Translations under genes and position numbers: made by a program
In this document: positions 1,431 to 58,779 of the stretch, in pieces
Numbering within the stretch: position 1 is the stretch's first letter
Layout of the letters: every line of letters starts with the position of its first letter
The notes under the pieces: generated by a model
What the model was told of the DNA's origin: nothing
The model's input: the letters and a program-made list of their open reading frames with translations, nothing else
The model's database searches: none
NCBI GenBank assembly: GCA_964447495.1
Contig: CAYUTF010000006.1
Span: 1,156-65,155 of the forward strand
Length of the DNA stretch: 64,000 bases
From: an uncultured archaeon
GTDB taxonomy: Archaea; Asgardarchaeota; Lokiarchaeia; Sigyniarchaeales; SOKP01
Reading direction: 5' to 3'

Positions 1431-3518
1431 TTGAAGAAAATGAACTTGTTTTTTGATCTCAAAAGTAAAAAAGTGGGATATTCTAGAATAGGTAAAGTAT
1501 ATCTATCTTCCAAAGTTAGAAAATATTTCAGTACACCCAATATAGTAATTCCTATGACAAATACTTTGATAGGTAATATCAATTTCTTAGAATATTTTGA
1601 AAATCATGAGATCTTTTTAATAACAAAAGAAATTTTCTTAAAAATTGGATTTCTACAAGATAAATTTAGAAATACTAGTTTTATGTATTCACATAACGGT
1701 ACATTAGAACGGTATGAAGAAATTCTTCACATAAATGAGCAAATTTTTTCACAAGATAATATATGTTCTATTATACCATTTAATATACCAACATCTTCGA
1801 TAGATAAGGATTTTGCTGAAAAAGAAATTAAGAATTATATTCAAAATATAAATCAGATTTTAGAGAGATACCCCAATAATAATTTTGGGATTACTATCAA
1901 AATTTTTGATTATTCTGAATTAATAAGGTTATATTTTCCTCTTATAACTAAGTATAAAAATATTAGAATCTTAAATTTTGCAGATTTATTTGATACGTTT
2001 AAAAATTATAGGGCTATTCTTAAAGTCATTAATGAAGTTAAGCAAGAACTAAATAATAACTTGGTTTTAATGGCTTCTGGACGCATCATTCCTAAATTCT
2101 ATCCCTTCTTAATATATTTGGGAATAGATTTAATAGATAGTTCATATATGATGTATATTTCTGCAGAAAATTATTATGATGCTATTGAAGACTTATTACC
2201 AATATATAAACTTAAAGAATTACCATGTCCGTGTGTTGCTTGTTCAGGAAGATTGAATGAGCTCTTACAAGAAAAATATTCTCAACAAAAGATAATGCTC
2301 CTTGTTTTACATAATCTAATTTCAGCCAAAAATTATATGAATAAAATAAAGCAGTATTTAAACACTGAAGATTATCGAGCATTTTTGGAAAAGACAACTC
2401 ATGATGATCCATTATTGTATTCCAGTTTAAAGACATTGGACAAAGAATATTTTAAGACACTTAGATTAGAGACTCCATTATCAATGGAAAGCACATTAAT
2501 TAAATGTATAGGTCCAATTTCATATAATAGACCAGATTTTAAGGAGTTTAGGAAGAGAATTACGACTACTTTCACACCAGAACCATGGACAAAATTGATA
2601 ATAATTTTACCCTGTTCAGCTAAAAAACCTTATTCAGAATCTAAATCTCACAAATTATTCTATAAAGTAATTAGGAAATTTCCGGAGTTTCCTGATTTTC
2701 AAGAGATTATTTTAACCTCACCATTGGGGGCAATTCCAAGACAATTAGAGAACATATATCCTGTTAACTCTTATGATATTCCAGTAACAGGAGAATGGGA
2801 TTATGAGGAGGTACAGATTTCTGCGAAGATGTTAATAAAATTATTAAAGAAATACAATGAAAAAATTCCAATAATCTGTCATTTAAAAGACGGTGGTTAT
2901 TCTTCGATTATAGATGTTGCAGTTAAAGAATTAAAGCATCAATTTTATTTTAGTAAAACAGATAATGATCTCACTTCAAGTTATTCTTTAAAATCTTTAG
3001 AGGAAACATTGATTACCGTAAAGGATCAATTTATACCTGAGGGAGATTCAATAACTAATACTTCATTAACAAATACTTGGTTAAGAAAATTAATTAAAAT
3101 TGCAGACTATCAATATGGTGTAGATTCAGGTATAAAACTATTTACTGAAGGAATTACAACTCGAAAAAATCGAACTGGCACAAAATTTGAAATTTTTAAA
3201 GCAAATAGTAACGATTTTATGGGAATTTTTGACTTTAGAAAAGGGCAGATTGAATTAAGTTTAAATGGTGCAAATTTATTATTTCCTTTTGATGATAACG
3301 GAAATACTATCATCTTTGATGGAGACACTATAACAGGAAGTAATCTTTTCAGACCTGGAATAATTGATTACAGCTCTAATATTAAACCAAATAGTAATGT
3401 TTTCATATTAGATAAAAGTAAGCAGCATATAATTGCTATTGGTAATTCGGTTATTGGTTCAAATGATATTAGAAATACAAAAAAGGGATTAGTTGCTGAG
3501 ATTTATGAAAAACTATAA
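1431..3518 (+). CDS. arcS: archaeosine synthase ArcS (TGT-like N-domain, PC-X3-KPY-X2-S-X2-H motif domain, C-terminal PUA)
   Basis: The exact motif PCSAKKPYSESKSH is present. A TGT-type Zn motif CPCVAC is present. The C-terminal end is PUA-like (GNSVIGSNDIRNTKKGLVAEI). Confidence 0.75.
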   Translation: MKKMNLFFDLKSKKVGYSRIGKVYLSSKVRKYFSTPNIVIPMTNTLIGNINFLEYFENHEIFLITKEIFLKIGFLQDKFRNTSFMYSHNGTLERYEEILHINEQIFSQDNICSIIPFNIPTSSIDKDFAEKEIKNYIQNINQILERYPNNNFGITIKIFDYSELIRLYFPLITKYKNIRILNFADLFDTFKNYRAILKVINEVKQELNNNLVLMASGRIIPKFYPFLIYLGIDLIDSSYMMYISAENYYDAIEDLLPIYKLKELPCPCVACSGRLNELLQEKYSQQKIMLLVLHNLISAKNYMNKIKQYLNTEDYRAFLEKTTHDDPLLYSSLKTLDKEYFKTLRLETPLSMESTLIKCIGPISYNRPDFKEFRKRITTTFTPEPWTKLIIILPCSAKKPYSESKSHKLFYKVIRKFPEFPDFQEIILTSPLGAIPRQLENIYPVNSYDIPVTGEWDYEEVQISAKMLIKLLKKYNEKIPIICHLKDGGYSSIIDVAVKELKHQFYFSKTDNDLTSSYSLKSLEETLITVKDQFIPEGDSITNTSLTNTWLRKLIKIADYQYGVDSGIKLFTEGITTRKNRTGTKFEIFKANSNDFMGIFDFRKGQIELSLNGANLLFPFDDNGNTIIFDGDTITGSNLFRPGIIDYSSNIKPNSNVFILDKSKQHIIAIGNSVIGSNDIRNTKKGLVAEIYEKL

Positions 3519-5113: not shown

Positions 5114-5160
5114 AAAGTATTAAAATTCCCCGATAACCATTCTAAAAAAAGGTGTAAATT

Positions 5161-6123
5161 ATTTCGAGTTGGAACCAAATTAAAACAATCCCATTTGAAA
5201 GAATAAAGATTGTAAATAACCTTTGTTCTGAATGTGGAAAAAATATTTTGTTTGATGAAAATAGAGGGTTATTGGTTTGTGAAGAGTGCGGATTAGTTCA
5301 TTCAGAGAAATTTATTGATCATGGTCCTGAATGGAGAGCTTTTGATGCTGATCAAAAGAAAAAAAGAACTAGAACTGGAGCCCCTATGACTTATATGATA
5401 CATGATAAGGGCTTATCAACCATGATTGATTGGAAGAATAGAGATATTTTTGGAAAGGAAATTCCCGCAAAATTAAGAGGCCAAATTTATCGACTCCGTA
5501 AATGGCAGAGTCGAATTAGAGTGTCTGATGCGACTGAGCGAAATCTTACTTTTGCTTTAAGTGAATTGGATAGAATGGCTTCTAATTTAGATCTTCATAA
5601 GAACATTCGGGAGTGTTCTGCAAAGATATATAGAGATGCTGTTGAGGCTCATCTTATTCGTGGAAGGAGTATTGAAGGAGTAGCTGCTGCTAGTTTATAT
5701 GCAGCATGTCGTATGTACAAAATTCCACGAACACTCAATGAAATTGCTGATGTAGCAAGGGTAGACAAAAAAGAGATTGGAAGATCGTTTCGATTTATTT
5801 CGAATGAATTATTGCTTAACTTAAATCCTACTAAACCTTTGGATTTTCTTACACGATTTATTTCAGAATTGGAATTATCTCCTTATTGTCAGAAAACGGC
5901 TAAAAAGGTAATAAAAATGGCTGAAGTAAGAGGTTTAACCTCTGGAAGAGGTCCTACAGGAGTATGCGCTGCCGCAATTTATGCGGCCTCAATATTAACT
6001 AAAGAAAGAAGGACTCAAAGAAAAATCGCTAAAATTAGTCAGGTTACAGAAGTGACAGTAAGAAATAGATTTTCTGAATTAATAGATAATTTAGATTTAG
6101 GGATAAAGATTAAAAAGAAATAA
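5161..6123 (+). CDS. tfb: transcription initiation factor IIB (TFB)
   Basis: It has two cyclin-fold repeats and a B-finger/linker region (GPEWRAFD...). The Zn ribbon CSEC-x14-CEEC begins at 5224, upstream of the track's TTG start at 5248. The frame is open from 5158, and the only start candidates are ATT 5158 or 5161 after GGTG at 5151-5154. The call is secure but the start coordinate is uncertain. Confidence 0.85.
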
Positions 6124-7943: not shown

Positions 7944-8543
7944 ATGAGAATTGTATTTTTCATAAAATCTGGTACAGTTAAAATCGATAAATATAATATC
8001 AAGGATATTCCTGGATCTTCTGGTAGATTAGATGTAATCTCAAGATCAATTTTGTCTGCAGTGCTCAAGGATAATGAATTAGATAAAAATGTGGAGATCT
8101 GGGTATTTTTAGATAATTATGGGACATTCATTTTTGATTCAAATAGATTTGATGATGATATGTTCCCTAAAAATGAGATTTTGCTCTCAGATTATTTTGT
8201 GGATTTTATTTTAAAGAAAAATAAACCCATACTGTTGAGTGAAAATCCATTAAACATAATAAAATTTGCAGAATTAGATATCTTTGAAGCCTTAAAGAAT
8301 TTCATTAAAAAGGAATTTCAAATTTTTGTATTAAATGAAAGTGGTCATGATTTTTTTCAATATTTTTGCACTTTAAATGATCAGAGTAATCTGTTATTTA
8401 TTATTGGAGATCAGTCTGGTGAACTTGTCAACTCACAAAAATTATTAGATTTAAATCTTATGAATATCAGTCTAGGAACTCAATCCTACTTAGCATCTTC
8501 GGTTATTCGGTTAATAAAACTAAATTTAAGGTTAATAATATGA
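7944..8543 (+). CDS. trmY: tRNA (pseudouridine54-N1)-methyltransferase TrmY-like (SPOUT)
   Basis: The N-terminal motif IKDIPGSSGRLDVISRSI resembles the TrmY DLPG-x-GRLD signature, and the length is about 200 aa. Confidence 0.6.
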   Translation: MRIVFFIKSGTVKIDKYNIKDIPGSSGRLDVISRSILSAVLKDNELDKNVEIWVFLDNYGTFIFDSNRFDDDMFPKNEILLSDYFVDFILKKNKPILLSENPLNIIKFAELDIFEALKNFIKKEFQIFVLNESGHDFFQYFCTLNDQSNLLFIIGDQSGELVNSQKLLDLNLMNISLGTQSYLASSVIRLIKLNLRLII

Positions 8544-8589
8544 AAAGTTTTTTATTCCTAAACATTTTACCTTTATAATATCACTATTA

Positions 8590-9291
8590 TTGAAATCTGC
8601 AATAAAGTTGAGCGAAGAAGATTTTTTAAATGATAAAAGAAAGAATCAAAGGAAAGTTTTACTAAGATTTATTGATGCTCCAGTAAAATATTTAATCAAA
8701 CATAATGTTTCGCCCAATACTTTATCATATCTTGGCTTTATATGTTCATTAAGCGTAGCTTTTTTTGTTGCTATCGACGGATTGCATTTTTCTATTTGGT
8801 TTGGGTGGATAGTACCCTTCTTATTATTTTGGGCTGGAGCTTTTGATGTATTTGATGGGGAAGTGGCTCGAAGAACGCATCAAAAATCTAGAGCAGGAGC
8901 ATTTTTAGATTCAAATTTAGATAGACTATCTGATGCCGCAATAATAATTGGTATGATAATAGGTAATTATATAAATTATTATGTTGGATATCTGCTTCTA
9001 TTTTTATTTTTAATGATATCATATATCCGTGCTAAAGCAGAAAATGAAAATCTTGAAATGAGAGGCGTTGGTTTTATGGAAAGAGCTGATCGTTTGATAA
9101 TCCTATGGTTTGCGTTCATTGGGGAATTTTGGGTATATTTTTTATCAAATTTATTTTTAGGATTCACTGTAAATATCTTCTTTCCTATTTTTATCATTAT
9201 CTATATCATCTTACTCTTATTGACAATAGTTCAAAGAATAACTTTTTCTATGAAAGCTCTCAGAAAAATAGATGACCATGAAAATAATTAG
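8590..9291 (+). CDS. CDP-alcohol phosphatidyltransferase family protein (archaeal lipid head-group synthase)
   Basis: The complete motif D-x2-DG-x2-AR-x8-G-x3-D-x3-D is present (DVFDGEVARRTHQKSRAGAFLDSNLD), and the protein is multi-TM. Confidence 0.8.
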   Translation: MKSAIKLSEEDFLNDKRKNQRKVLLRFIDAPVKYLIKHNVSPNTLSYLGFICSLSVAFFVAIDGLHFSIWFGWIVPFLLFWAGAFDVFDGEVARRTHQKSRAGAFLDSNLDRLSDAAIIIGMIIGNYINYYVGYLLLFLFLMISYIRAKAENENLEMRGVGFMERADRLIILWFAFIGEFWVYFLSNLFLGFTVNIFFPIFIIIYIILLLLTIVQRITFSMKALRKIDDHENN

Positions 9292-9432
9292 GATGAAATA
9301 CTAAATAAAGTTGAAACCTACTTCACACTTTTAGTTAAATTGTGAAGAAGAATAAATTTTTTAAGTTGTGTAGTATTTAAGAATTGTGATTTAAAGGATA
9401 AATTAAAAAAATTTAAGTAAAAGCTGATTTTT

Positions 9433-9705
9433 ATTCCAAAGAAAAGAAGAAGTGGTGGAAAAAGCGGTTCTAGCAAGGGACATTATGCCCGAGTGCAATG
9501 TAGTAATTGCGGGAGGTTTGTTGCTAGAAGCAAGGCAAAAGCAGTTACTAGGAGAGTCTCTTTAGTGGATGGACGTATGTATACAGAATTAAAGAAAACT
9601 GGAACGATTATCCAAGCCCCAACTAAGACACAATATTTTTGTATCAGTTGTGCGGTCCATGGACACCAAATTAGTCAACGAGATAAAAATTTAAGAAAAA
9701 CTTAA
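9433..9705 (+). CDS. rps26e: 30S ribosomal protein eS26
   Basis: CSNCGRFV...YFCISCAVHG matches eS26. The conserved N-terminus (M)PKKRRSGGKSGSSKGH is encoded in frame upstream of the track's GTG at 9493. The only start candidate right before PKKRR is ATT 9433, with a stop at 9418-9420. Confidence 0.8.
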   Translation: MPKKRRSGGKSGSSKGHYARVQCSNCGRFVARSKAKAVTRRVSLVDGRMYTELKKTGTIIQAPTKTQYFCISCAVHGHQISQRDKNLRKT

Positions 9706-9839
9706 TTGTATTTTGTATTTTTTAAGAAAATTAGTCAGTATATTTCTAATTTCAGTTAGTTTCTTTTTTGTCATAAATGAACACTATATGGCAATAACCT
9801 TTCCCAAAAATTAAATTTGTTATTGCTTTATTTAAATAA

Positions 9840-11834
9840 TTATAGATTAAGTGCTTTGAAAAAAGCGGGTAAAGAATAGATAATTTCACACTCATTCTTT
9901 TTAGTTATTTCAATAATCGCACGAATTAAATAGCTATCTTTCAATTCATCACTTGGTTTATAAATTTTTGCTGTTGCTGTTGGCTTTAACTTAAGAGTAT
10001 AATTTTCCGCTATTCCGGTAATATTTTCTTCTGTATTTAGGATAAGCCCTAATAATCCTAATTCATAATGGGACACAATAAAAAGAATTTGATCTTGATC
10101 ACCATATTTTTCAAAATGAACCACTTCCAATTCATCTTCCTGAAGTTCTTTAGGAAATCTAGAGAAGGGGATAATCTTTCTTTTTCCTGATATGTAAGGA
10201 AAATCAGTGTAAAAAAGTAAATTAAAACTTGATATCTTCTTGATTTGTTCATTATATTTTTCTACGTCTTTAACGGAATAAGCTTTGTCAAGCAATACAT
10301 CCAATTTATCAATCATAATATCTTCTGCAGAATATCCATTTAGTACTGTTGCTATATACGCTCTTTTTAATTTTTCAATTAATGTATCGCTCCTCACATT
10401 CAGATTATAATCAATACTTAATTCGAGAGCCTCATTATACAGATTTACAGCTATTTGTGAATGCCCTAATGCTAAAAAGTAATCACCTAGTTCACTAAAG
10501 ACGATGATTGCATCTAGAAAATCTTTTTCAAAATCTATTTTTGAAATTTCTTCCATGATCGTTATCGCTGTTTCAGTTTCCTCACCTTGGATATATAATG
10601 AAATTGCTTTACCAATTAAGCATTTTAATTTTAATTTTTCATCATTGTAAATATCTGATAATTCTTCCGTAAAATTATAAGCCATAATCGCATCATCATA
10701 GAGTCCGTGAAATAGTAATATTAACGCTTTTACATAGTTAAGAGTTAAACAAGTTTGTTGATTACGAATTATTGTAGAAAATAATGCAGCCCTCTCAATG
10801 GAATCAATTGCAGAATTGATTCTACCTAAAGAAACCAAAATAAATGCCCGGAGGAACTCCATTTTACTTATTTCTGAACAGATTAATTTCTCTACTATTT
10901 CATAACTCTTTTGATTAGTAAGTTGCCCAGCAGCTAATTGGAGAAGAGAAATCAAAAATCCATTTCCTTTTTTTAAAAACTTTGCTGCTTCCTTAGAATC
11001 ATTTTTTATAATCGAATCCCGTGCTCTTTTTAAATATTCACGAGAAATTTTTAAATTTTCAAGAAAGTTAACAATATCTTGGATTTTCTCCTCTTCTTTT
11101 GATGAAAGCTTGTGATCTTCAATATATTTTTCAGCAATCGCAATTTCTTTTTCATACTTTTTCATTCCAATCTGAAATTTAACTTTAGTAGCTTTTTTAT
11201 CAACATATTCAGCATCTTGGGTTAGAATTGAGCTTTCTGTAACACTTATAGCTTTTTCAAGCAACCATGTAATTTTTGACTCTGCAGGATAAACTTTTGA
11301 TCTTTGAAGCATATACGAGAGTGTATAATTTAAGCTTTTCTTCCACAAATTATTGAAATAATTTCTTAATTGTTTATTAGGTATTGTTCTTTGGATTTTT
11401 AAAAGGAAACTTGATAATGATAAGGTTTCAACTTTACCATGGAATATTAGATTTGTATTTTTGATGAGTTTGAAATCATCAGATACCAAATAAATTAGAG
11501 TTTTATTTTCTTCATCCATTAGACGGTCCGCAAGGACAATTAATGACAAGTCAGGATCTTGTGCTGGAAATCGAATATTATGCATCATTAGTTCTGTTTT
11601 GATATTGTCAATTTCAGAATCAAGAATTTTTTCGATATTCATGATTTTTGCTAATCTTTCTTTATAAGTAAGGGGTGCTTTTATCTCATTAAAAACCGTT
11701 TCAGATATATAGTACTCAAAACCAAGCTGTTCTGATACTTCTTGTAAATTATCTAAAATGTGGCGTACTCTGATAGATAATAACATAATGAAGAAGTTTG
11801 CATCAAAAATGATCAATTCTTTTTTTTTAGGCAT
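9840..11834 (-). CDS. PIN-domain nuclease fused to a long TPR-like helical-repeat region
   Basis: The N-terminus has PIN acidic residues in the canonical order (IIFDANFF, ISETV, DPDLSLI, VSDDF). The C-terminal ~450 aa show repeated A/Y/L helical-pair patterns. Confidence 0.55.
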   Translation of the reverse strand: MPKKKELIIFDANFFIMLLSIRVRHILDNLQEVSEQLGFEYYISETVFNEIKAPLTYKERLAKIMNIEKILDSEIDNIKTELMMHNIRFPAQDPDLSLIVLADRLMDEENKTLIYLVSDDFKLIKNTNLIFHGKVETLSLSSFLLKIQRTIPNKQLRNYFNNLWKKSLNYTLSYMLQRSKVYPAESKITWLLEKAISVTESSILTQDAEYVDKKATKVKFQIGMKKYEKEIAIAEKYIEDHKLSSKEEEKIQDIVNFLENLKISREYLKRARDSIIKNDSKEAAKFLKKGNGFLISLLQLAAGQLTNQKSYEIVEKLICSEISKMEFLRAFILVSLGRINSAIDSIERAALFSTIIRNQQTCLTLNYVKALILLFHGLYDDAIMAYNFTEELSDIYNDEKLKLKCLIGKAISLYIQGEETETAITIMEEISKIDFEKDFLDAIIVFSELGDYFLALGHSQIAVNLYNEALELSIDYNLNVRSDTLIEKLKRAYIATVLNGYSAEDIMIDKLDVLLDKAYSVKDVEKYNEQIKKISSFNLLFYTDFPYISGKRKIIPFSRFPKELQEDELEVVHFEKYGDQDQILFIVSHYELGLLGLILNTEENITGIAENYTLKLKPTATAKIYKPSDELKDSYLIRAIIEITKKNECEIIYSLPAFFKALNL

Positions 11835-24258: not shown

Positions 24259-25239
24259 CTATTTGAGCTCAATTCGAAGAAGATCATTTGCTAAAATGCT
24301 ATTTGGAAAAATTTTTTTAGCGTCTTCTAACAATTTTATCGCATCTTCTTGATATCTCGAAGAGATATGAGTCAATACTAATTGTTTAGCATTCATTTTT
24401 TTTGCAACATTTGCGGCATCTATTGAAGTAGAATGCTTCTTTTCAACAGCAATTTGAGATAATTCTTTTGAAAAGGTAGCTTCATGTATTAAAATATCAG
24501 AATCTTTTCCTAGTTTTATTAAGTTATCACATGGGGCAGTGTCTCCAGAATAAGTTATTTTTCTACCTGCTCTTTTTGGTCCAACAATTCCTTCTTTTAA
24601 AGGATTAACTATTTTTCCTTCAAACTCAATACTTTGTCCTTCATGTAATTTTTTCCAAAGGCTGCTCTCAGGTATTTCCAGTTCTCTTGCTCGAGTAGGA
24701 TTAAACTTTCCATTTCTTGGCTTTTCTAAAAAACTATAGCCGTATGTTAAAACCGAATGATCTACTAATGTATATTTGAGATAATATTTTGTATTCTCAA
24801 AAATGATGTTATTTTGTATTTGATATTCACCATGAGGTTGTTCAGATTCTAAACCTTCATATTCAATCAGTTTATTTTGGCTATAATGTATTTCAAAAAC
24901 CCTTAGGGGATAATTTGCTTTAAGTCCTAATATTTTTCTATGAAGATATAGGTAAAGATAAAGGTTGGGAGGGCCAAATATAAACAATGGAGCATTTCTA
25001 TCAATTAAACCAAAGCGAAATAAAAGCCCAGGGAGACCGATTATATGATCTCCATGAAAATGGGATATAAGAATTTTGAGAGGTTTATTAAATTTCAAAC
25101 CTGCATTAATAATGCCCCTTTGGATATCCTCACCGCAATCAAATATAATAAGTTCATTCTTATATTTTAAAGCAATTGCTGGTAAATTACGCTCTTGTAC
25201 TGGTATCGCTGCTGCTGACCCTAAAATAATCAATTCCAT
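24259..25239 (-). CDS. rnz: ribonuclease Z (tRNA 3' endonuclease)
   Basis: MELIILGS...ERNLPAIAL, the HFHGDH motif and the C-terminal THIS motif are present. Confidence 0.85.
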   Translation of the reverse strand: MELIILGSAAAIPVQERNLPAIALKYKNELIIFDCGEDIQRGIINAGLKFNKPLKILISHFHGDHIIGLPGLLFRFGLIDRNAPLFIFGPPNLYLYLYLHRKILGLKANYPLRVFEIHYSQNKLIEYEGLESEQPHGEYQIQNNIIFENTKYYLKYTLVDHSVLTYGYSFLEKPRNGKFNPTRARELEIPESSLWKKLHEGQSIEFEGKIVNPLKEGIVGPKRAGRKITYSGDTAPCDNLIKLGKDSDILIHEATFSKELSQIAVEKKHSTSIDAANVAKKMNAKQLVLTHISSRYQEDAIKLLEDAKKIFPNSILANDLLRIELK

Positions 25240-25253
25240 TAAAAATCAGTGAC

Positions 25254-26546
25254 TTATATACTTTTCCTTAGCTGTGATATTTCTAATCTTTGTTGAACAT
25301 TCTGTTTTTTTAAATCTTCAATTATACTTTTAAGTTCTTCTATTCTCAGAGCAATATTATGGTCTTCAACTTGATCTAAACCAGAATGAGTTTGATTTTT
25401 AATATTAAATGAGTTCAATTCATTTCTTAGGTCATATATTTTTTGATCTTTTTCTTTCATTTGATTTTCTAAGATTTCATAACTCTTTTTTATACGAATT
25501 GCTTCATTTTTTATTGTGCTAATCTCTTCTTCTTTAATATTTAGATTTCTTTTTGCTTCATCTAATTGTTGCTGTAAAAAACTGGCCATTTCGCGTTGAA
25601 TTTTTAGCTTTCCATCAATTTCTCCGGGAGAACTTGCTTGAAGTGGAGTAGTTTGAATTTGAGGTGTTTTTGATTGACTTTCTAAAAGTTGAATCCTCAC
25701 TTTTGCTTTATTGAGTTTATTCTGTAATTCTTCCACAACTTGATCTAATGGTAGTGGTTCATTTGACTCTTTAAGAGATGAGACTAATTCTTTTAATTCC
25801 TTGATTTGCACATTTTTTGATTCTAATTCGCTTGTTAAAGACATTAACGCCTTATCATTTGCTCCTTTTGAACTTTTTTTCTCATATTTTTCTAATTTCT
25901 TTTTTAAATTTTCATTTTGTTTTTTGACTTTGGTCAAAGTATCTTGAAGATCTTCTAATAAATCCTTAGTAATGTTCTCTGATTTTTTTTGATCCTTTGT
26001 AATAGCAGATTGTTCTAAAAAATTTTTTAATTTTAAGATTTCTTCTTTAAGATTTTCAATTTCCCTATCTTTCTCATCGACAATCTCAAGATCATCATGT
26101 TCTTCTCCTTTTCCTGTTCTTCTTAACTTTTTGATAAGAGAATCTTGTTTATTGATTTTATCTTGTAATTCTTTAACTAATATATTAAGTGGCTGCTTAT
26201 TCCTCAGATCCTCAACTCTAATAACGGAAGATGAGGTACTTTCTGAACTTTTGATTGATTCAAGTTCCTTTTGAGCATCTATCTTCTCCTTTCTTAAAAA
26301 TCCCATTCGATCTTTTAAATCTCTAATTTCTCTTTCTTTGGCTTCTAATTCGATACTTAATTTTGATTGCTTTGTCTTTTTAGATTGCTTCTTTGATTTT
26401 TTATCAGGGATTAATTCTCCCAATTTCATAATTTCATCTTCTAAATATTCGATCTTATCTAAATATTCACCGATCTCTCCTTCCTTTTTATTTAATTCTA
26501 ACTGTAGCCTTTCAAGTTGTTTTTTAAGATTAGCTTCTTCCGTCAT
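25254..26546 (-). CDS. long coiled-coil protein (K/E/L-rich, 430 aa)
   Basis: It has an almost continuous heptad-like charged sequence and no enzymatic motif. Confidence 0.55.
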   Translation of the reverse strand: MTEEANLKKQLERLQLELNKKEGEIGEYLDKIEYLEDEIMKLGELIPDKKSKKQSKKTKQSKLSIELEAKEREIRDLKDRMGFLRKEKIDAQKELESIKSSESTSSSVIRVEDLRNKQPLNILVKELQDKINKQDSLIKKLRRTGKGEEHDDLEIVDEKDREIENLKEEILKLKNFLEQSAITKDQKKSENITKDLLEDLQDTLTKVKKQNENLKKKLEKYEKKSSKGANDKALMSLTSELESKNVQIKELKELVSSLKESNEPLPLDQVVEELQNKLNKAKVRIQLLESQSKTPQIQTTPLQASSPGEIDGKLKIQREMASFLQQQLDEAKRNLNIKEEEISTIKNEAIRIKKSYEILENQMKEKDQKIYDLRNELNSFNIKNQTHSGLDQVEDHNIALRIEELKSIIEDLKKQNVQQRLEISQLRKSI

Positions 26547-26633: not shown

Positions 26634-28547
26634 CTAATACATTTCGAAATCCTTTATTGAAAATTGCTTGACTTTTTTCATTACAGGAAAAAGACTAAGA
26701 GCATTAAATATTCCGAATATGATAAATAAAAAGCCTATAAAGATAAAAGGTATAAAGATATGGGGCAAATATACTCTTTCAAATATTATAATTGAATTTA
26801 ATATCATACCTACTCCCAAACTTACACCAAGAGAAGGTATTATAACATACATAGCCTCTAAGAACAAAATCTTTCTTATTGATTTATTCTTAGAACCAAT
26901 CGCTCTCATAATCAGGAAATCTTTTACTTTTTCCATTATTCCACCTTTTTGATAGTTATAGAGAGATAATATCGCAACTACACTCAAAATTATTATTAAA
27001 ATCGATGGAAACAGAGCTAGATTTGAAATGAAATTAAGATTTTCAGTAAATATATGATCCATTTTTAGATATGTAAATTGCTCTCCTAAAGAAGCATTAA
27101 TAATGCTTTCAAGCTGACCTTGAATGCTATCAAATCCCTCTGAATTTACTTTAATAAATGCTAGATTTACTTGGTTTGAAGTTAAATTCATATTAGTACG
27201 GAATTTATCTATATCAATATAAGTTGCATAGCCGCTGTAGAGACTATCAATAACAACACCAGATATTTCAAATATTTCACCTAATTGATCAAAAAGAATA
27301 GCCTGATCAAAAGGATAGTCAAAAAAGTTATAGGCTAAACCATCTCCAATGACCGCATAGTAACTCGATACCCCTTGTAGTGTGATAAAATCACCCTCGA
27401 TTTCAAAATTTTGGAGATTATCACTTTGATTAACACCAATAACTGGAAAAATCCCTTTTCTATTCTGACCTACATATAAATATCCTCCATCTTCATAAAT
27501 GTGAGTTCCAGATATTTCTTCCGCTTCTAAAAAGTTAATAAGTCGATACTCTTGATCTTCAATCTCTGAAAGGGTATTTAAATCATCTAAGGATGAGATA
27601 TTAAATAAGTAATCCTCTTGTAAGAAGTTAATACTAGTATTATCTATAAATATAGCTGGATTCTGAAACATCTCATACATTAAAGAATAATTTTGAACCA
27701 CATCCTTATGTCCAATTAATATAAGGTTATCTGTTTGTGATTTCCTAACCCATTCATATGAAGAGGTGTATAATACTATAGTTCCTAAACCTAAAGTAAA
27801 AATGATTAATGATATAATAGAGAAAACTATAATATATCTCTTAAACTCTCCTTTCCTCCTTATAGAATTAATTACAGACATTTTAAAATTTAGGTTTATT
27901 AATGATAACCATTTAGGGATGAATGTCAGGTCTTTAGATGCATTATAGTTATAAGGTATATCCTTAGAGAAATTCTTCACAATTTTTTGATTCCCTATTT
28001 TACGTAATATGTATCCAGGTACAATAAAAATACCCCCTAAGCATGAGAAAAACAAAATGGGAGTATATACAAAATCTAATTGGAATTGCATATAAATATT
28101 GGTAAACGAAAAACTAAATGCAAATATAGCAAATGAAATTATTCCAATAACTATACCGATTATAAATGCAATTAAAAAGATGAGATATACTTCAGTTAAA
28201 TAAAAACTATATAATTTACGTGGTAATGAACCTAGCGCCCTCATTATCGCGATGTCACGCTTCTTGGAGATAATTAAGGTACTACTTATCACAATAACAA
28301 CAATAAACGCCAAAATCATCATTAATATGATAATTAAGCTATTAAAATCAGTAAAAATTATATTAATTCCGCCTGAAAAATAAAATTCGTTTACATAACT
28401 ATATTGGATAAAGTTGTTTAAACCAATAGAGGAAGTAAAATAAATTAAGAACTCAGTAACTGAAATTATTAATACTAATACCACTAAATAAGGATAGGAT
28501 ATGTCTTTTTTTCGATAGATATCTTTAAACGCAAAATCAAGTGAAAT
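26634..28547 (-). CDS. ABC transporter permease, FtsX/MacB type
   Basis: There are two FtsX-like TM bundles separated by a large extracytoplasmic domain. The track start is GTG 28484, but the frame is open upstream and encodes a typical N-terminus (SLDFAFKDIYRKKDISYPYL). ATT 28547 lies 7 nt after GGTGA. Confidence 0.75.
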   Translation of the reverse strand: MSLDFAFKDIYRKKDISYPYLVVLVLIISVTEFLIYFTSSIGLNNFIQYSYVNEFYFSGGINIIFTDFNSLIIILMMILAFIVVIVISSTLIISKKRDIAIMRALGSLPRKLYSFYLTEVYLIFLIAFIIGIVIGIISFAIFAFSFSFTNIYMQFQLDFVYTPILFFSCLGGIFIVPGYILRKIGNQKIVKNFSKDIPYNYNASKDLTFIPKWLSLINLNFKMSVINSIRRKGEFKRYIIVFSIISLIIFTLGLGTIVLYTSSYEWVRKSQTDNLILIGHKDVVQNYSLMYEMFQNPAIFIDNTSINFLQEDYLFNISSLDDLNTLSEIEDQEYRLINFLEAEEISGTHIYEDGGYLYVGQNRKGIFPVIGVNQSDNLQNFEIEGDFITLQGVSSYYAVIGDGLAYNFFDYPFDQAILFDQLGEIFEISGVVIDSLYSGYATYIDIDKFRTNMNLTSNQVNLAFIKVNSEGFDSIQGQLESIINASLGEQFTYLKMDHIFTENLNFISNLALFPSILIIILSVVAILSLYNYQKGGIMEKVKDFLIMRAIGSKNKSIRKILFLEAMYVIIPSLGVSLGVGMILNSIIIFERVYLPHIFIPFIFIGFLFIIFGIFNALSLFPVMKKVKQFSIKDFEMY

Positions 28548-30716: not shown

Positions 30717-31001
30717 TTGAATGAATGTGTTTACAAGGAGGTTTTTAATTTGGCTGATGAAAAAAAGAAGATAAAGTATGATGGGGAACTAGATACAAGA
30801 GGTTTATTTTGTCCAGAACCACTTTTTGAGGTGCGTAATTTTTCAGAATCGCTAGAAATCGGTCAATGCTTTAAAGTATTGGCAGATGATCCTGCCGCAG
30901 AAGAGGATTTAACTCGATGGGCAAAAAGGACTGATACAGAAATAGTAGAGTTCTTTAAAGATGGGGAAGATTTAGTGTTTTATTTTAAGAAAAAAAAGTA
31001 A
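30717..31001 (+). CDS. tusA: TusA/SirA-family sulfurtransferase
   Basis: GLFCPEPLFEV...VLADDPAAEEDLTRWAK matches the TusA CPxP signature. The likely true start is TTG 30750, 8 nt after AGGAGG (30736-30741). Confidence 0.8.
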   Translation: MNECVYKEVFNLADEKKKIKYDGELDTRGLFCPEPLFEVRNFSESLEIGQCFKVLADDPAAEEDLTRWAKRTDTEIVEFFKDGEDLVFYFKKKK

Positions 31002-54375: not shown

Positions 54376-54396
54376 TTTATTGAGGTGATTTAAACA

Positions 54397-58274: not shown

Positions 58275-58583
58275 TTAATCAATTGGTACATCTACAGCAC
58301 CTTCCATATGATCCTTGAAAGGTACTTCAACTTTTAATATTCCATTTTTATACATGGCTTTCGATTTATCAGCAGATACGGGACAACATATGGCATATGA
58401 TCCCACATATACTGTATTTTCACTTTCCCCTTTCACAAAAAAAGAATCCTCATGCATTTTCAAAGCTATTGTATCTTTTTCTACACCGGGCATAGTTATT
58501 TCAATATGATAATTATCATGTTCATCATCTGCATAAGCACATATATCAGGGGATATTATATACTTTTCTTTCTCTTCAGATAT
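58275..58583 (-). CDS. Hsp20/alpha-crystallin-domain small heat shock protein
   Basis: HIEITMPGVEKDTIALKMHEDSFFVKGE...AMYKNGILKVEVP is present. The track start ATG 58493 falls inside the ACD (within ..EITMPGV..). The frame is open back to TGA 58592-58590, and ATA 58583 lies 6 nt after GGTGA (58594-58590). Confidence 0.7.
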   Translation of the reverse strand: MSEEKEKYIISPDICAYADDEHDNYHIEITMPGVEKDTIALKMHEDSFFVKGESENTVYVGSYAICCPVSADKSKAMYKNGILKVEVPFKDHMEGAVDVPID

Positions 58584-58779
58584 GATTAATCACCTTTTTA
58601 ATTTAATTGGATTTATTTCATTAAGAAATATCAAAATAGGCATTTTAAAACTTTGTTTTATGATTTGTAAGACTTTGGACTAAATCCTTATTTGAAAGAA
58701 TATTTCAGAGCCATTTTTATTTTATTTTATAAATTTTATACATAATATCATATTTACGTTAACTTTATCGCCTATTTTT

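Follow-up and report, generated by a model that had tools for sequence, protein, structure and literature searches.

A probable ATT start codon with a conserved leader in the eS26 ribosomal protein gene of Asgard archaea

Ribosomal protein eS26 is encoded on a 64,000-nt stretch of DNA (the window; contig CAYUTF010000006.1 of assembly GCA_964447495.1, G+C about 29%) from an uncultured archaeon of the Asgardarchaeota (Lokiarchaeia). Translation of this gene very probably starts at an ATT codon (9433-9435), and the near-cognate start is accompanied in Asgard archaea by a nearly invariant leader motif and a conserved promoter element. An earlier note, made from the letters of the window alone, had proposed that the N-terminus (M)PKKRR is initiated at this ATT; the proposal is strongly supported by 80 orthologous loci and by gene calls in GenBank. 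The frame after the in-frame TAA (9418-9420) reads AAG CTG ATT TTT ATT (9421-9435) and continues with CCA AAG AAA AGA AGA, which gives KLIFIPKKRR. This reading and its coordinates, as well as the GTG at 9493 as the first in-frame ATG, GTG or TTG, had been given in the earlier note and were confirmed.

The protein matched Pfam PF01283 (E 1.3e-14; score 55 bits, cutoff 27; covering profile positions 1-93 of 108) and NCBIfam NF006816 (E 2.8e-23, residues 1-89 on profile positions 1-89 of 96), the latter with 82 bits, below the equivalog cutoff of 118. Among database proteins, S26e proteins of Asgard archaea (Promethearchaeota) come closest, with up to 89% identity. The best solved structure is the eS26 of S. 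solfataricus (chain 9fs6_b, MPKKRENRG), which was aligned over residues 1-89 on 1-89; the Plasmodium eS26 (3j7a_3, MPKKRRNGG) was also aligned from residue 1. The Pfam, NCBIfam and PDB alignments all begin at the ATT-encoded residue, and the basic N-terminus (M-P/T-KKR) is placed by them on residue 1 of eS26 from solved ribosomes. The two CxxC pairs are predicted to form the eS26 zinc knuckle, as is typical of the family.

For comparison, 80 Asgard genome loci were fetched and aligned together with the window on the Pro2 codon (81 loci); some counts were made on unique sequences only (79 loci for the Val21 codon and 44 for the leader motif). The codon before Pro2 was ATT in 51 loci, ATG in 15, TTG in 8, ATA in 4, ATC in 2 and ACG in one; that is, AUG or a one-base neighbour of AUG in 81/81. 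Judged from these sequences, such a pattern far exceeds chance. The position is not merely that of a conserved hydrophobic residue, because Leu is encoded there by TTG in 8/8 cases, though TTG makes up 12.7% of the Leu codons in these genomes, and because the lone Thr is encoded by ACG (10% of Thr codons). Among the 58 loci with ATT, ATA, ATC or ACG, 55 have no ATG, GTG or TTG between the upstream stop codon and Pro2, and the frame opens just four codons upstream in 23. Moreover, GenBank translates the codon equivalent to ATT 9433 as Met in loci of several metagenome-assembled genomes (L001, L007, L029, L039, L044/45 and L057). An upstream ATG in another frame, an intron and a frameshift were also considered and rejected: in the window, the 60 nt before the start contain no ATG. 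The sole leader elements conserved across the loci are the promoter element and the Shine-Dalgarno (SD)-like motif described below, neither of which contains ATG.

A single base change from ATG would suffice to produce the ATT, so that a mistake in sequencing or assembly, or a pseudogene, might be suspected. The comparison with orthologous loci, which the earlier note had suggested, showed ATG in 15/81 but in different leader contexts, while ATT was the majority state; the ATT is therefore not taken as a sequencing error. It is found in 51 independent assemblies, with other near-cognates in 15 more, and the open reading frame (ORF) is intact and under purifying selection, which leaves this explanation a negligible probability.

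A downstream start is hardly more credible. The GTG 9493 is the sole in-frame choice of ATG, GTG or TTG, and gene callers have given 70-aa and 62-aa versions of the orthologues, so that a truncated eS26 beginning at this GTG or at a later ATG, and lacking the basic N-terminal tail, might be considered. However, the Val21 codon is GTG in only 6/79 unique loci, against GTT in 55. Most loci with a non-canonical start reach their next canonical codon at codon 49 or 38, past the first CxxC; codon 49 is the first such codon in 31 loci. The codons 2-20 (PKKRKSGGKSGSSKG...) carry a clear signature of purifying selection, in that the amino acids are conserved across the loci with abundant synonymous change; for example, Ser7 is encoded by AGT, AGC, TCT, TCG or TCA and Arg5 by AGA, CGA, AGG, CGT or CGC. 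This indicates that codons 2-20 are translated. The alignment from residue 1 with archaeal and eukaryotic eS26 of solved ribosomes also argues against truncation, and a start at the GTG or later is extremely improbable. The 81-locus comparison and the conservation of codons 2-20 together exclude sequencing error, pseudogene and downstream start for practical purposes.

The ATT start is preceded by a motif that was nearly invariant in 44 unique loci, with [A/G]GCTGATTTTTATT at positions -14 to -1. The earlier note had stated that no SD is visible; this did not hold, since the nearly invariant AGCTGATTTTT sits in the SD register upstream of eS26. The leader can be described as AGGUGAUUU with one conserved G-to-C change. 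In other Asgard lineages an ordinary SD (GAGGT, GGAGGT or AGGTGA) is found at the position of the motif, with ATG or a near-cognate start. In a sub-clade (L008-L061), AAGCTGA lies 3-9 nt from ATG, TTG or ATT. Four loci (L022, L042, L047 and L050) have GCTGAT displaced by one base, so that the CTG is out of frame and the motif itself supplies an in-frame TGA; this suggests that the motif acts at the nucleotide level.

These variants also bear on a possible start at CTG 9424-9426, four codons upstream, by which 'LIFI' would be coding and the protein would be extended by MIFI. About 45 loci have the CTG in frame as a near-cognate codon, LIFI seems to be conserved at the protein level, the position is taken by TTG in L037 and L046, and GenBank calls the CTG as Met in L015 (MIFIPKKRK). 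However, in the four displaced loci the CTG is out of frame with an in-frame TGA before the ATT, the spacing of AAGCTGA varies in the L008-L061 sub-clade, and the third codon of LIFI varies non-conservatively (F, L, V, S or Y). No SD lies upstream of the CTG, lineages without the motif keep the near-cognate codon exactly at the Met position, and eS26 proteins of solved structures start with MPKKR. The CTG start is thus very unlikely, and the ATT remains the preferred start.

The SDs of other genes in the window are AGGTGA(TTT) or GGAGGT, such as ttgAGGTGATTTaaacaATG before the ORF at 54394 and aaGGAGGTttttaatTTG at 30751, and are complementary to the archaeal 16S tail. No rRNA and no tRNA genes were found in the 64-kb window, and the anti-SD used here was an assumed consensus of the archaeal 16S 3' tail, 5'-AUCACCUCCU-3' (PMC7531240), not the organism's own 16S. 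With this consensus tail, the predicted duplex of the eS26 leader with the anti-SD had -4.1 kcal/mol, compared with -10.8 kcal/mol for the G variant. The leader motif occurs once in the window, no more often than in shuffled sequences, and GCTGA is found near 1 of 298 putative ATG starts, where TGATT, GGTGA, AGGTG and GAGGT are enriched. By these counts the motif appears specific to eS26; a repeated or general ribosome-binding element was considered and rejected on the same counts. The sole other leaders of GCTGA/CTGAT type that were seen belong to a metallo-beta-lactamase-fold gene (24262-25245, minus strand), whose leader tcaCTGATTTTTA-ATG (25246-25260) is closely like the CTGATTTTT-ATT of eS26, and to a radical-SAM (S-adenosylmethionine) gene at 3505 (GCTGAgattt-ATG).

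The leader GCUGAUUUUUAUU might instead be a mimic of the 16S 3' tail (GGCUGGAUCA...) to which free eS26 binds and represses directly, as in classical ribosomal-protein autoregulation. GCUG and AU are common to the leader and the rRNA tail, eS26 binds the single-stranded GGAUCACC (PMC11698992), and the motif is specific to eS26 and too weak for a good SD. Against this, only some 6 nt are alike, the palindromic GAUC confounds the comparison, and an ordinary GAGGT SD stands at the same position in other Asgard lineages. There is also no conserved RNA structure. The Rfam scan of the whole window gave no match at the gathering threshold, and RNAalifold returned an open chain with no consensus structure in each of four windows from -30 to +100 (43-44 unique sequences each). 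A hairpin predicted from the window sequence alone was rejected as not conserved. Direct repression through such a mimic is therefore rather improbable, and an imperfect SD-like element is the preferred interpretation of the leader.

Further upstream, an element resembling a B recognition element (BRE) and TATA box could be recognized by eye and was then followed by a pattern search. The core ATAAATTTTTTAAG, with up to 2 substitutions, was present in 65/81 Asgard eS26 loci and ends 48-71 nt before the start codon (mode 67-68; 67 nt in the window). Lineages that start at ATG have it, as do those whose SD is ordinary. The copy in the window is exact and unique at 0 mismatches; its GATAAA fits the archaeal BRE consensus RNWAAW, and the T-rich TATA is next to it. 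Compared with the remaining intergenic sequence, the block RRATAAATTTTTTAAG, which has KTTT and often ATTCAA after it, shows much stricter conservation, and it is not common elsewhere in the window. From the conserved element 67 nt upstream, the mRNA is expected to be leadered, with a 5' untranslated region predicted at about 44-47 nt. The earlier note had suggested a leaderless or short-leadered mRNA with a TATA-like sequence about 20 nt upstream. The string TTTAAGTAAAA does exist (9412-9422), but it is not conserved and too close: a TATA box is centred about 26 nt before the transcription start, which would put the start downstream of the ATT. The conserved BRE/TATA element instead implies a leader of about 45 nt, and a leaderless mRNA would not be expected, as a 14-nt conserved element lies within the predicted leader. 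The features of the locus are listed in Table 1.

Table 1. Coordinates in the window of the eS26 gene and its associated elements.
Feature	Position	Strand	Remarks
BRE/TATA-like element GAATAAATTTTTTAAG	9350..9365	+	RNWAAW then T-rich TATA; putative promoter, from archaeal consensus
Predicted transcription start	9386..9389	+	from usual archaeal spacing, ~23-25 nt after the TATA box
In-frame TAA	9418..9420	+	closes the frame four codons before the start
SD-like leader motif AAGCTGATTTTT	9421..9432	+	AGGTGATTT with a central G-to-C change; start codon directly after
Probable ATT initiation codon of eS26	9433..9435	+	presumably decoded as Met by initiator tRNA; 81-locus comparison, profile and PDB alignments
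eS26 coding sequence	9433..9705	+	90 codons plus TAA 9703-9705; PF01283, NF006816
GTG (Val21)	9493..9495	+	first canonical in-frame codon, internal sense codon; two codons before TGT 9499-9501
First zinc-binding CxxC (Cys23, Cys26)	9499..9510	+	CSNC; TGT AGT AAT TGC; invariant in 32-orthologue alignment
Second zinc-binding CxxC (Cys70, Cys73)	9640..9651	+	CISC; invariant in 32-orthologue alignment
T-rich tract ttgtattttgtattttttaag	9706..9727	+	after the stop codon; likely archaeal oligo-T terminator, judged from sequence

Near-cognate starts were also indicated for other genes. In the TFB (TFIIB) gene of the window (5161-6123, plus strand), the zinc ribbon is encoded upstream of the first canonical codon, and an SD AAGGTG (5149-5154) and an in-frame TAA (5155-5157) precede ATT 5161-5163. 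Ten TFB loci (the window and L161-L169) share the arrangement AAG GTG nnn nnn ATT followed by TCA AGT TGG, with the ATT invariant in 10/10 and a stop codon between the ATT and the GTG that is part of the SD in 6/10. GenBank calls of TFB are split between the ATT (MSSW...) and the GTG (MGLISSW, MCFISSW). The geometry AAG-[G/C]TG-N6-ATT is common to TFB and eS26: AAGGTG-N6-ATT in TFB has the same spacing as AAGCTG-N6-ATT in eS26, in which the C mismatch weakens the predicted duplex. A small heat-shock protein (sHsp; Hsp20/alpha-crystallin, 58278-58586, minus strand) likely provides the third near-cognate start in the window. Its PF00011 match covers residues 21-94; whereas the first canonical start is residue 32, inside the domain, so that the alpha-crystallin domain begins 11 residues before that codon. 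The strong SD aaAAGGTGATta (AAGGTGAT) precedes ATC 58586 and ATA 58583. A possible fourth case, with ATT as the candidate start, is the ORF of an FtsX-like ABC permease (26637-28547, minus strand), where GGTGATtgagaa is followed by ATT 28547 and the first canonical codon is a GTG 21 codons downstream. In another Asgard metagenome-assembled genome, CbiM (L079:361-1029, plus strand) has aaaaGGTGAaaataat and then ATT CAT ATT CCT GAT GGT, that is (M)HIPDG; position 1 of the PF01891 profile falls on residue 2. The next canonical codon comes 11 codons later. For the Asgard tubulin AtubA, too, a 'rare ATT start codon' was reported (PMC13394414).

These cases resemble eS26 in that an SD (in eS26, the SD-like motif) is followed after 6-7 nt by an ATT replacing the Met of a conserved N-terminus (TFB, CbiM of L079, and AtubA, PMC13394414). 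They differ in having a canonical AGGTG SD; the eS26 leader, by contrast, carries the conserved G-to-C mismatch and is phylogenetically far more widespread. A crude test of enrichment on 523 kb counted SD plus ATT at 6 ORF openings versus 18 for ATG, with a ratio to the interior of 1.4, but this comparison is underpowered.

The main rival to the regulatory part of the eS26 reading is accordingly a general habit: the ATT start would be real without any eS26-specific regulation, Asgard archaea would use AUU, AUA or AUC on a few percent of SD-led genes, and the leader would reflect only the avoidance of an upstream in-frame start. The TFB start in 10/10 loci, the probable ATC/ATA of sHsp20, the ATT of CbiM, the permease candidate and the ATT-started tubulin (PMC13394414) all agree with it. 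On the other side, the non-canonical state persists across deep Asgard lineages (58/81 eS26 loci) while the codon itself switches among near-cognates, the leader motif is eS26-specific and nearly invariant, and a parallel enrichment of TTG and CTG is seen in eS26 of Nitrososphaerota type. These three observations point to gene-specific selection on eS26. The general habit is nonetheless a real possibility, at less than even odds.

The parallel was observed in an outgroup set of 80 metagenomic loci with eS26 of Nitrososphaerota/Bathyarchaeia type (L081-L160), in which the starts were ATG in 38, TTG in 34, CTG in 3 and GTG in one; TTG and CTG account for 10% and 21% of the Leu codons in this set. 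The ATT class was seen in the Asgard set only. Judged from both sets, predicted weak starts of eS26 occur across TACK and Asgard archaea. Many of the Nitrososphaerota-type loci carry a TATA-like TTTAAAG some 35 nt upstream, which suggests short leaders there. Many gene calls in this set were extended upstream to a spurious ATG.

The biochemistry of eS26 offers a possible reason for a weak start. In S. solfataricus, eS26 is wrapped around the single-stranded 16S 3' end within the mRNA exit channel, a position that does not allow an SD:anti-SD duplex (Bourgeois et al. 2025, PMC11698992). The binding is sub-stoichiometric and reversible, and excess eS26 abolishes toeprints on SD-leadered mRNAs, a behaviour like that of an initiation factor (PMC11698992). 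[quoted passage not shown] The start codon and the leader of the eS26 gene are not discussed in that study (PMC11698992). The Asgard protein belongs to the same family as the S. solfataricus eS26, with its N-terminus aligned from residue 1 (9fs6_b); whereas Saccharolobus has mostly leaderless mRNAs and the Asgard eS26 gene is predicted to be leadered with an SD-like element.

A mechanism might be proposed on this basis. The eS26 gene is intact and presumably expressed, and AUU would be read by the initiator Met-tRNA as a near-cognate start; since Pro follows, the Met is probably removed, and the mature protein would begin with PKKRR as in other archaea and eukaryotes. On the leadered mRNA, the 30S subunit would be placed on the AUU by the imperfect SD-like element AAGCUGAUUUUU, with its UGAUUU and AG parts pairing with the 16S tail AUCACCUCCU and the start 6 nt after xUG, as in TFB. 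The weak codon and the weak SD might make eS26 synthesis strongly dependent on a free anti-SD, so that the mRNA would be translated mainly by eS26-free subunits. Accumulating eS26 would then occlude the anti-SD and shut off its own mRNA, a negative feedback whose sensitivity might be sharpened by the mismatched SD. The weak start codon probably tunes the amount of eS26; the specific feedback loop, which draws on the analogy with S. solfataricus, is put forward tentatively.

Start-codon control of this kind has known counterparts. AUU starts are used by bacterial infC, which encodes IF3, and by E. coli pcnB, and the weak codon of infC gives negative feedback; IF3 rejects non-canonical codons directly. 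The eS26 gene resembles infC in that its product acts on translation initiation and in that a conserved AUU is combined with an SD (in eS26, with the SD-like motif). It differs in domain of life and in protein, and the feedback, in which eS26 would occlude the anti-SD (PMC11698992), is a proposal. Unlike in infC, the eS26 codon drifts among AUU, AUA, AUC, UUG and ACG. In eukaryotes, start-codon stringency is controlled through the poor-context AUG of eIF1 and upstream open reading frames of eIF5, and aIF1, aIF1A and aIF2 are common to Asgard archaea and eukaryotes. In both settings, genes for the initiation machinery carry weak initiation sites; the eS26 start, however, is placed in an SD-like manner, without scanning or a Kozak context. 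More speculatively, and less probably than the feedback loop by itself, an Asgard regulon of start-codon stringency might exist, with SD-assisted AUU, AUA, AUC, UUG or ACG starts on eS26, TFB, sHsp, some transporters and tubulin, in which eS26 would feed back on its own mRNA through anti-SD occlusion and set the balance of SD-dependent and SD-independent initiation. If true, such a regulon with its mismatched eS26 SD would be an archaeal forerunner of the eukaryotic near-cognate and Kozak-context control involving eS26.

Several points weigh against this interpretation. The 81 eS26 loci give phylogenetically non-independent counts, and the gene trees are rough neighbour-joining trees of a 90-residue protein. 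The duplex energy of -4.1 kcal/mol falls between the background median (-3.0) and the lower quartile (-4.4); the pairing is weak, and the SD role of the motif is suggested by its position and by analogy. With any base but the conserved C at that place, an in-frame ATG, GTG or TTG would arise, and this may be why the C is conserved. Initiation at AUU and decoding as Met are inferred for this organism, and the biochemistry of eS26 was worked out in a crenarchaeon, whose mRNAs are mostly leaderless, and not in Asgard archaea. Furthermore, ATT starts are not exclusive to eS26 and may reflect a general property of the lineage rather than a feedback loop.

To our knowledge, eS26 is one of three eukaryote-type small-subunit proteins that are limited to TACK and Asgard among archaea. 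Near-cognate AUU starts are allowed by translation table 11 and by PGAP, and they are already known in bacteria. No paper was found in the literature on an ATT, AUU or near-cognate start of archaeal eS26/S26e, on its Asgard conservation, or on its leader or promoter, and the only mention found of an Asgard ATT start concerns the tubulin (PMC13394414). Reviews of archaeal translation give only AUG, GUG and UUG as start codons (PMC7531240). The combination of a near-cognate start, a gene-specific leader and a conserved promoter might provide a handle on the tuning of initiation in the closest relatives of eukaryotes. It also has practical consequences, as eS26, TFB and other Asgard genes are frequently given a wrong start, being shortened, lengthened or overlooked by gene callers, which affects marker-gene phylogenies and recombinant constructs and may affect ribosomal-protein marker sets. 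At least five N-termini of Asgard eS26 occur among the GenBank and JGI protein calls (P0003-P0116), including M from the ATT, MIFI from the CTG, long upstream extensions, a 70-aa form (GTG Val21) and a 62-aa form (internal ATG). The GenBank calls begin further upstream in L041 and L065.

The eS26 gene appears to be monocistronic. Its neighbours, in 7944-9291 (plus strand) and 9840-11834 (minus strand), encode a PF04013 SAM-dependent RNA methyltransferase, a CDP-alcohol phosphatidyltransferase and a protein with tetratricopeptide repeats. The phosphatidyltransferase has its first canonical start, a TTG, 17 codons after the frame opens, and the repeat protein has 664 aa and is convergent to eS26. 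Elsewhere in the window, a small TusA/SirA-like protein (30751-31001, plus strand; ...DTRGLFCPEPLFEVR...) has an ORF without ATG and a strong SD acAAGGAGGTttttaat, and evidently starts at TTG 30751.

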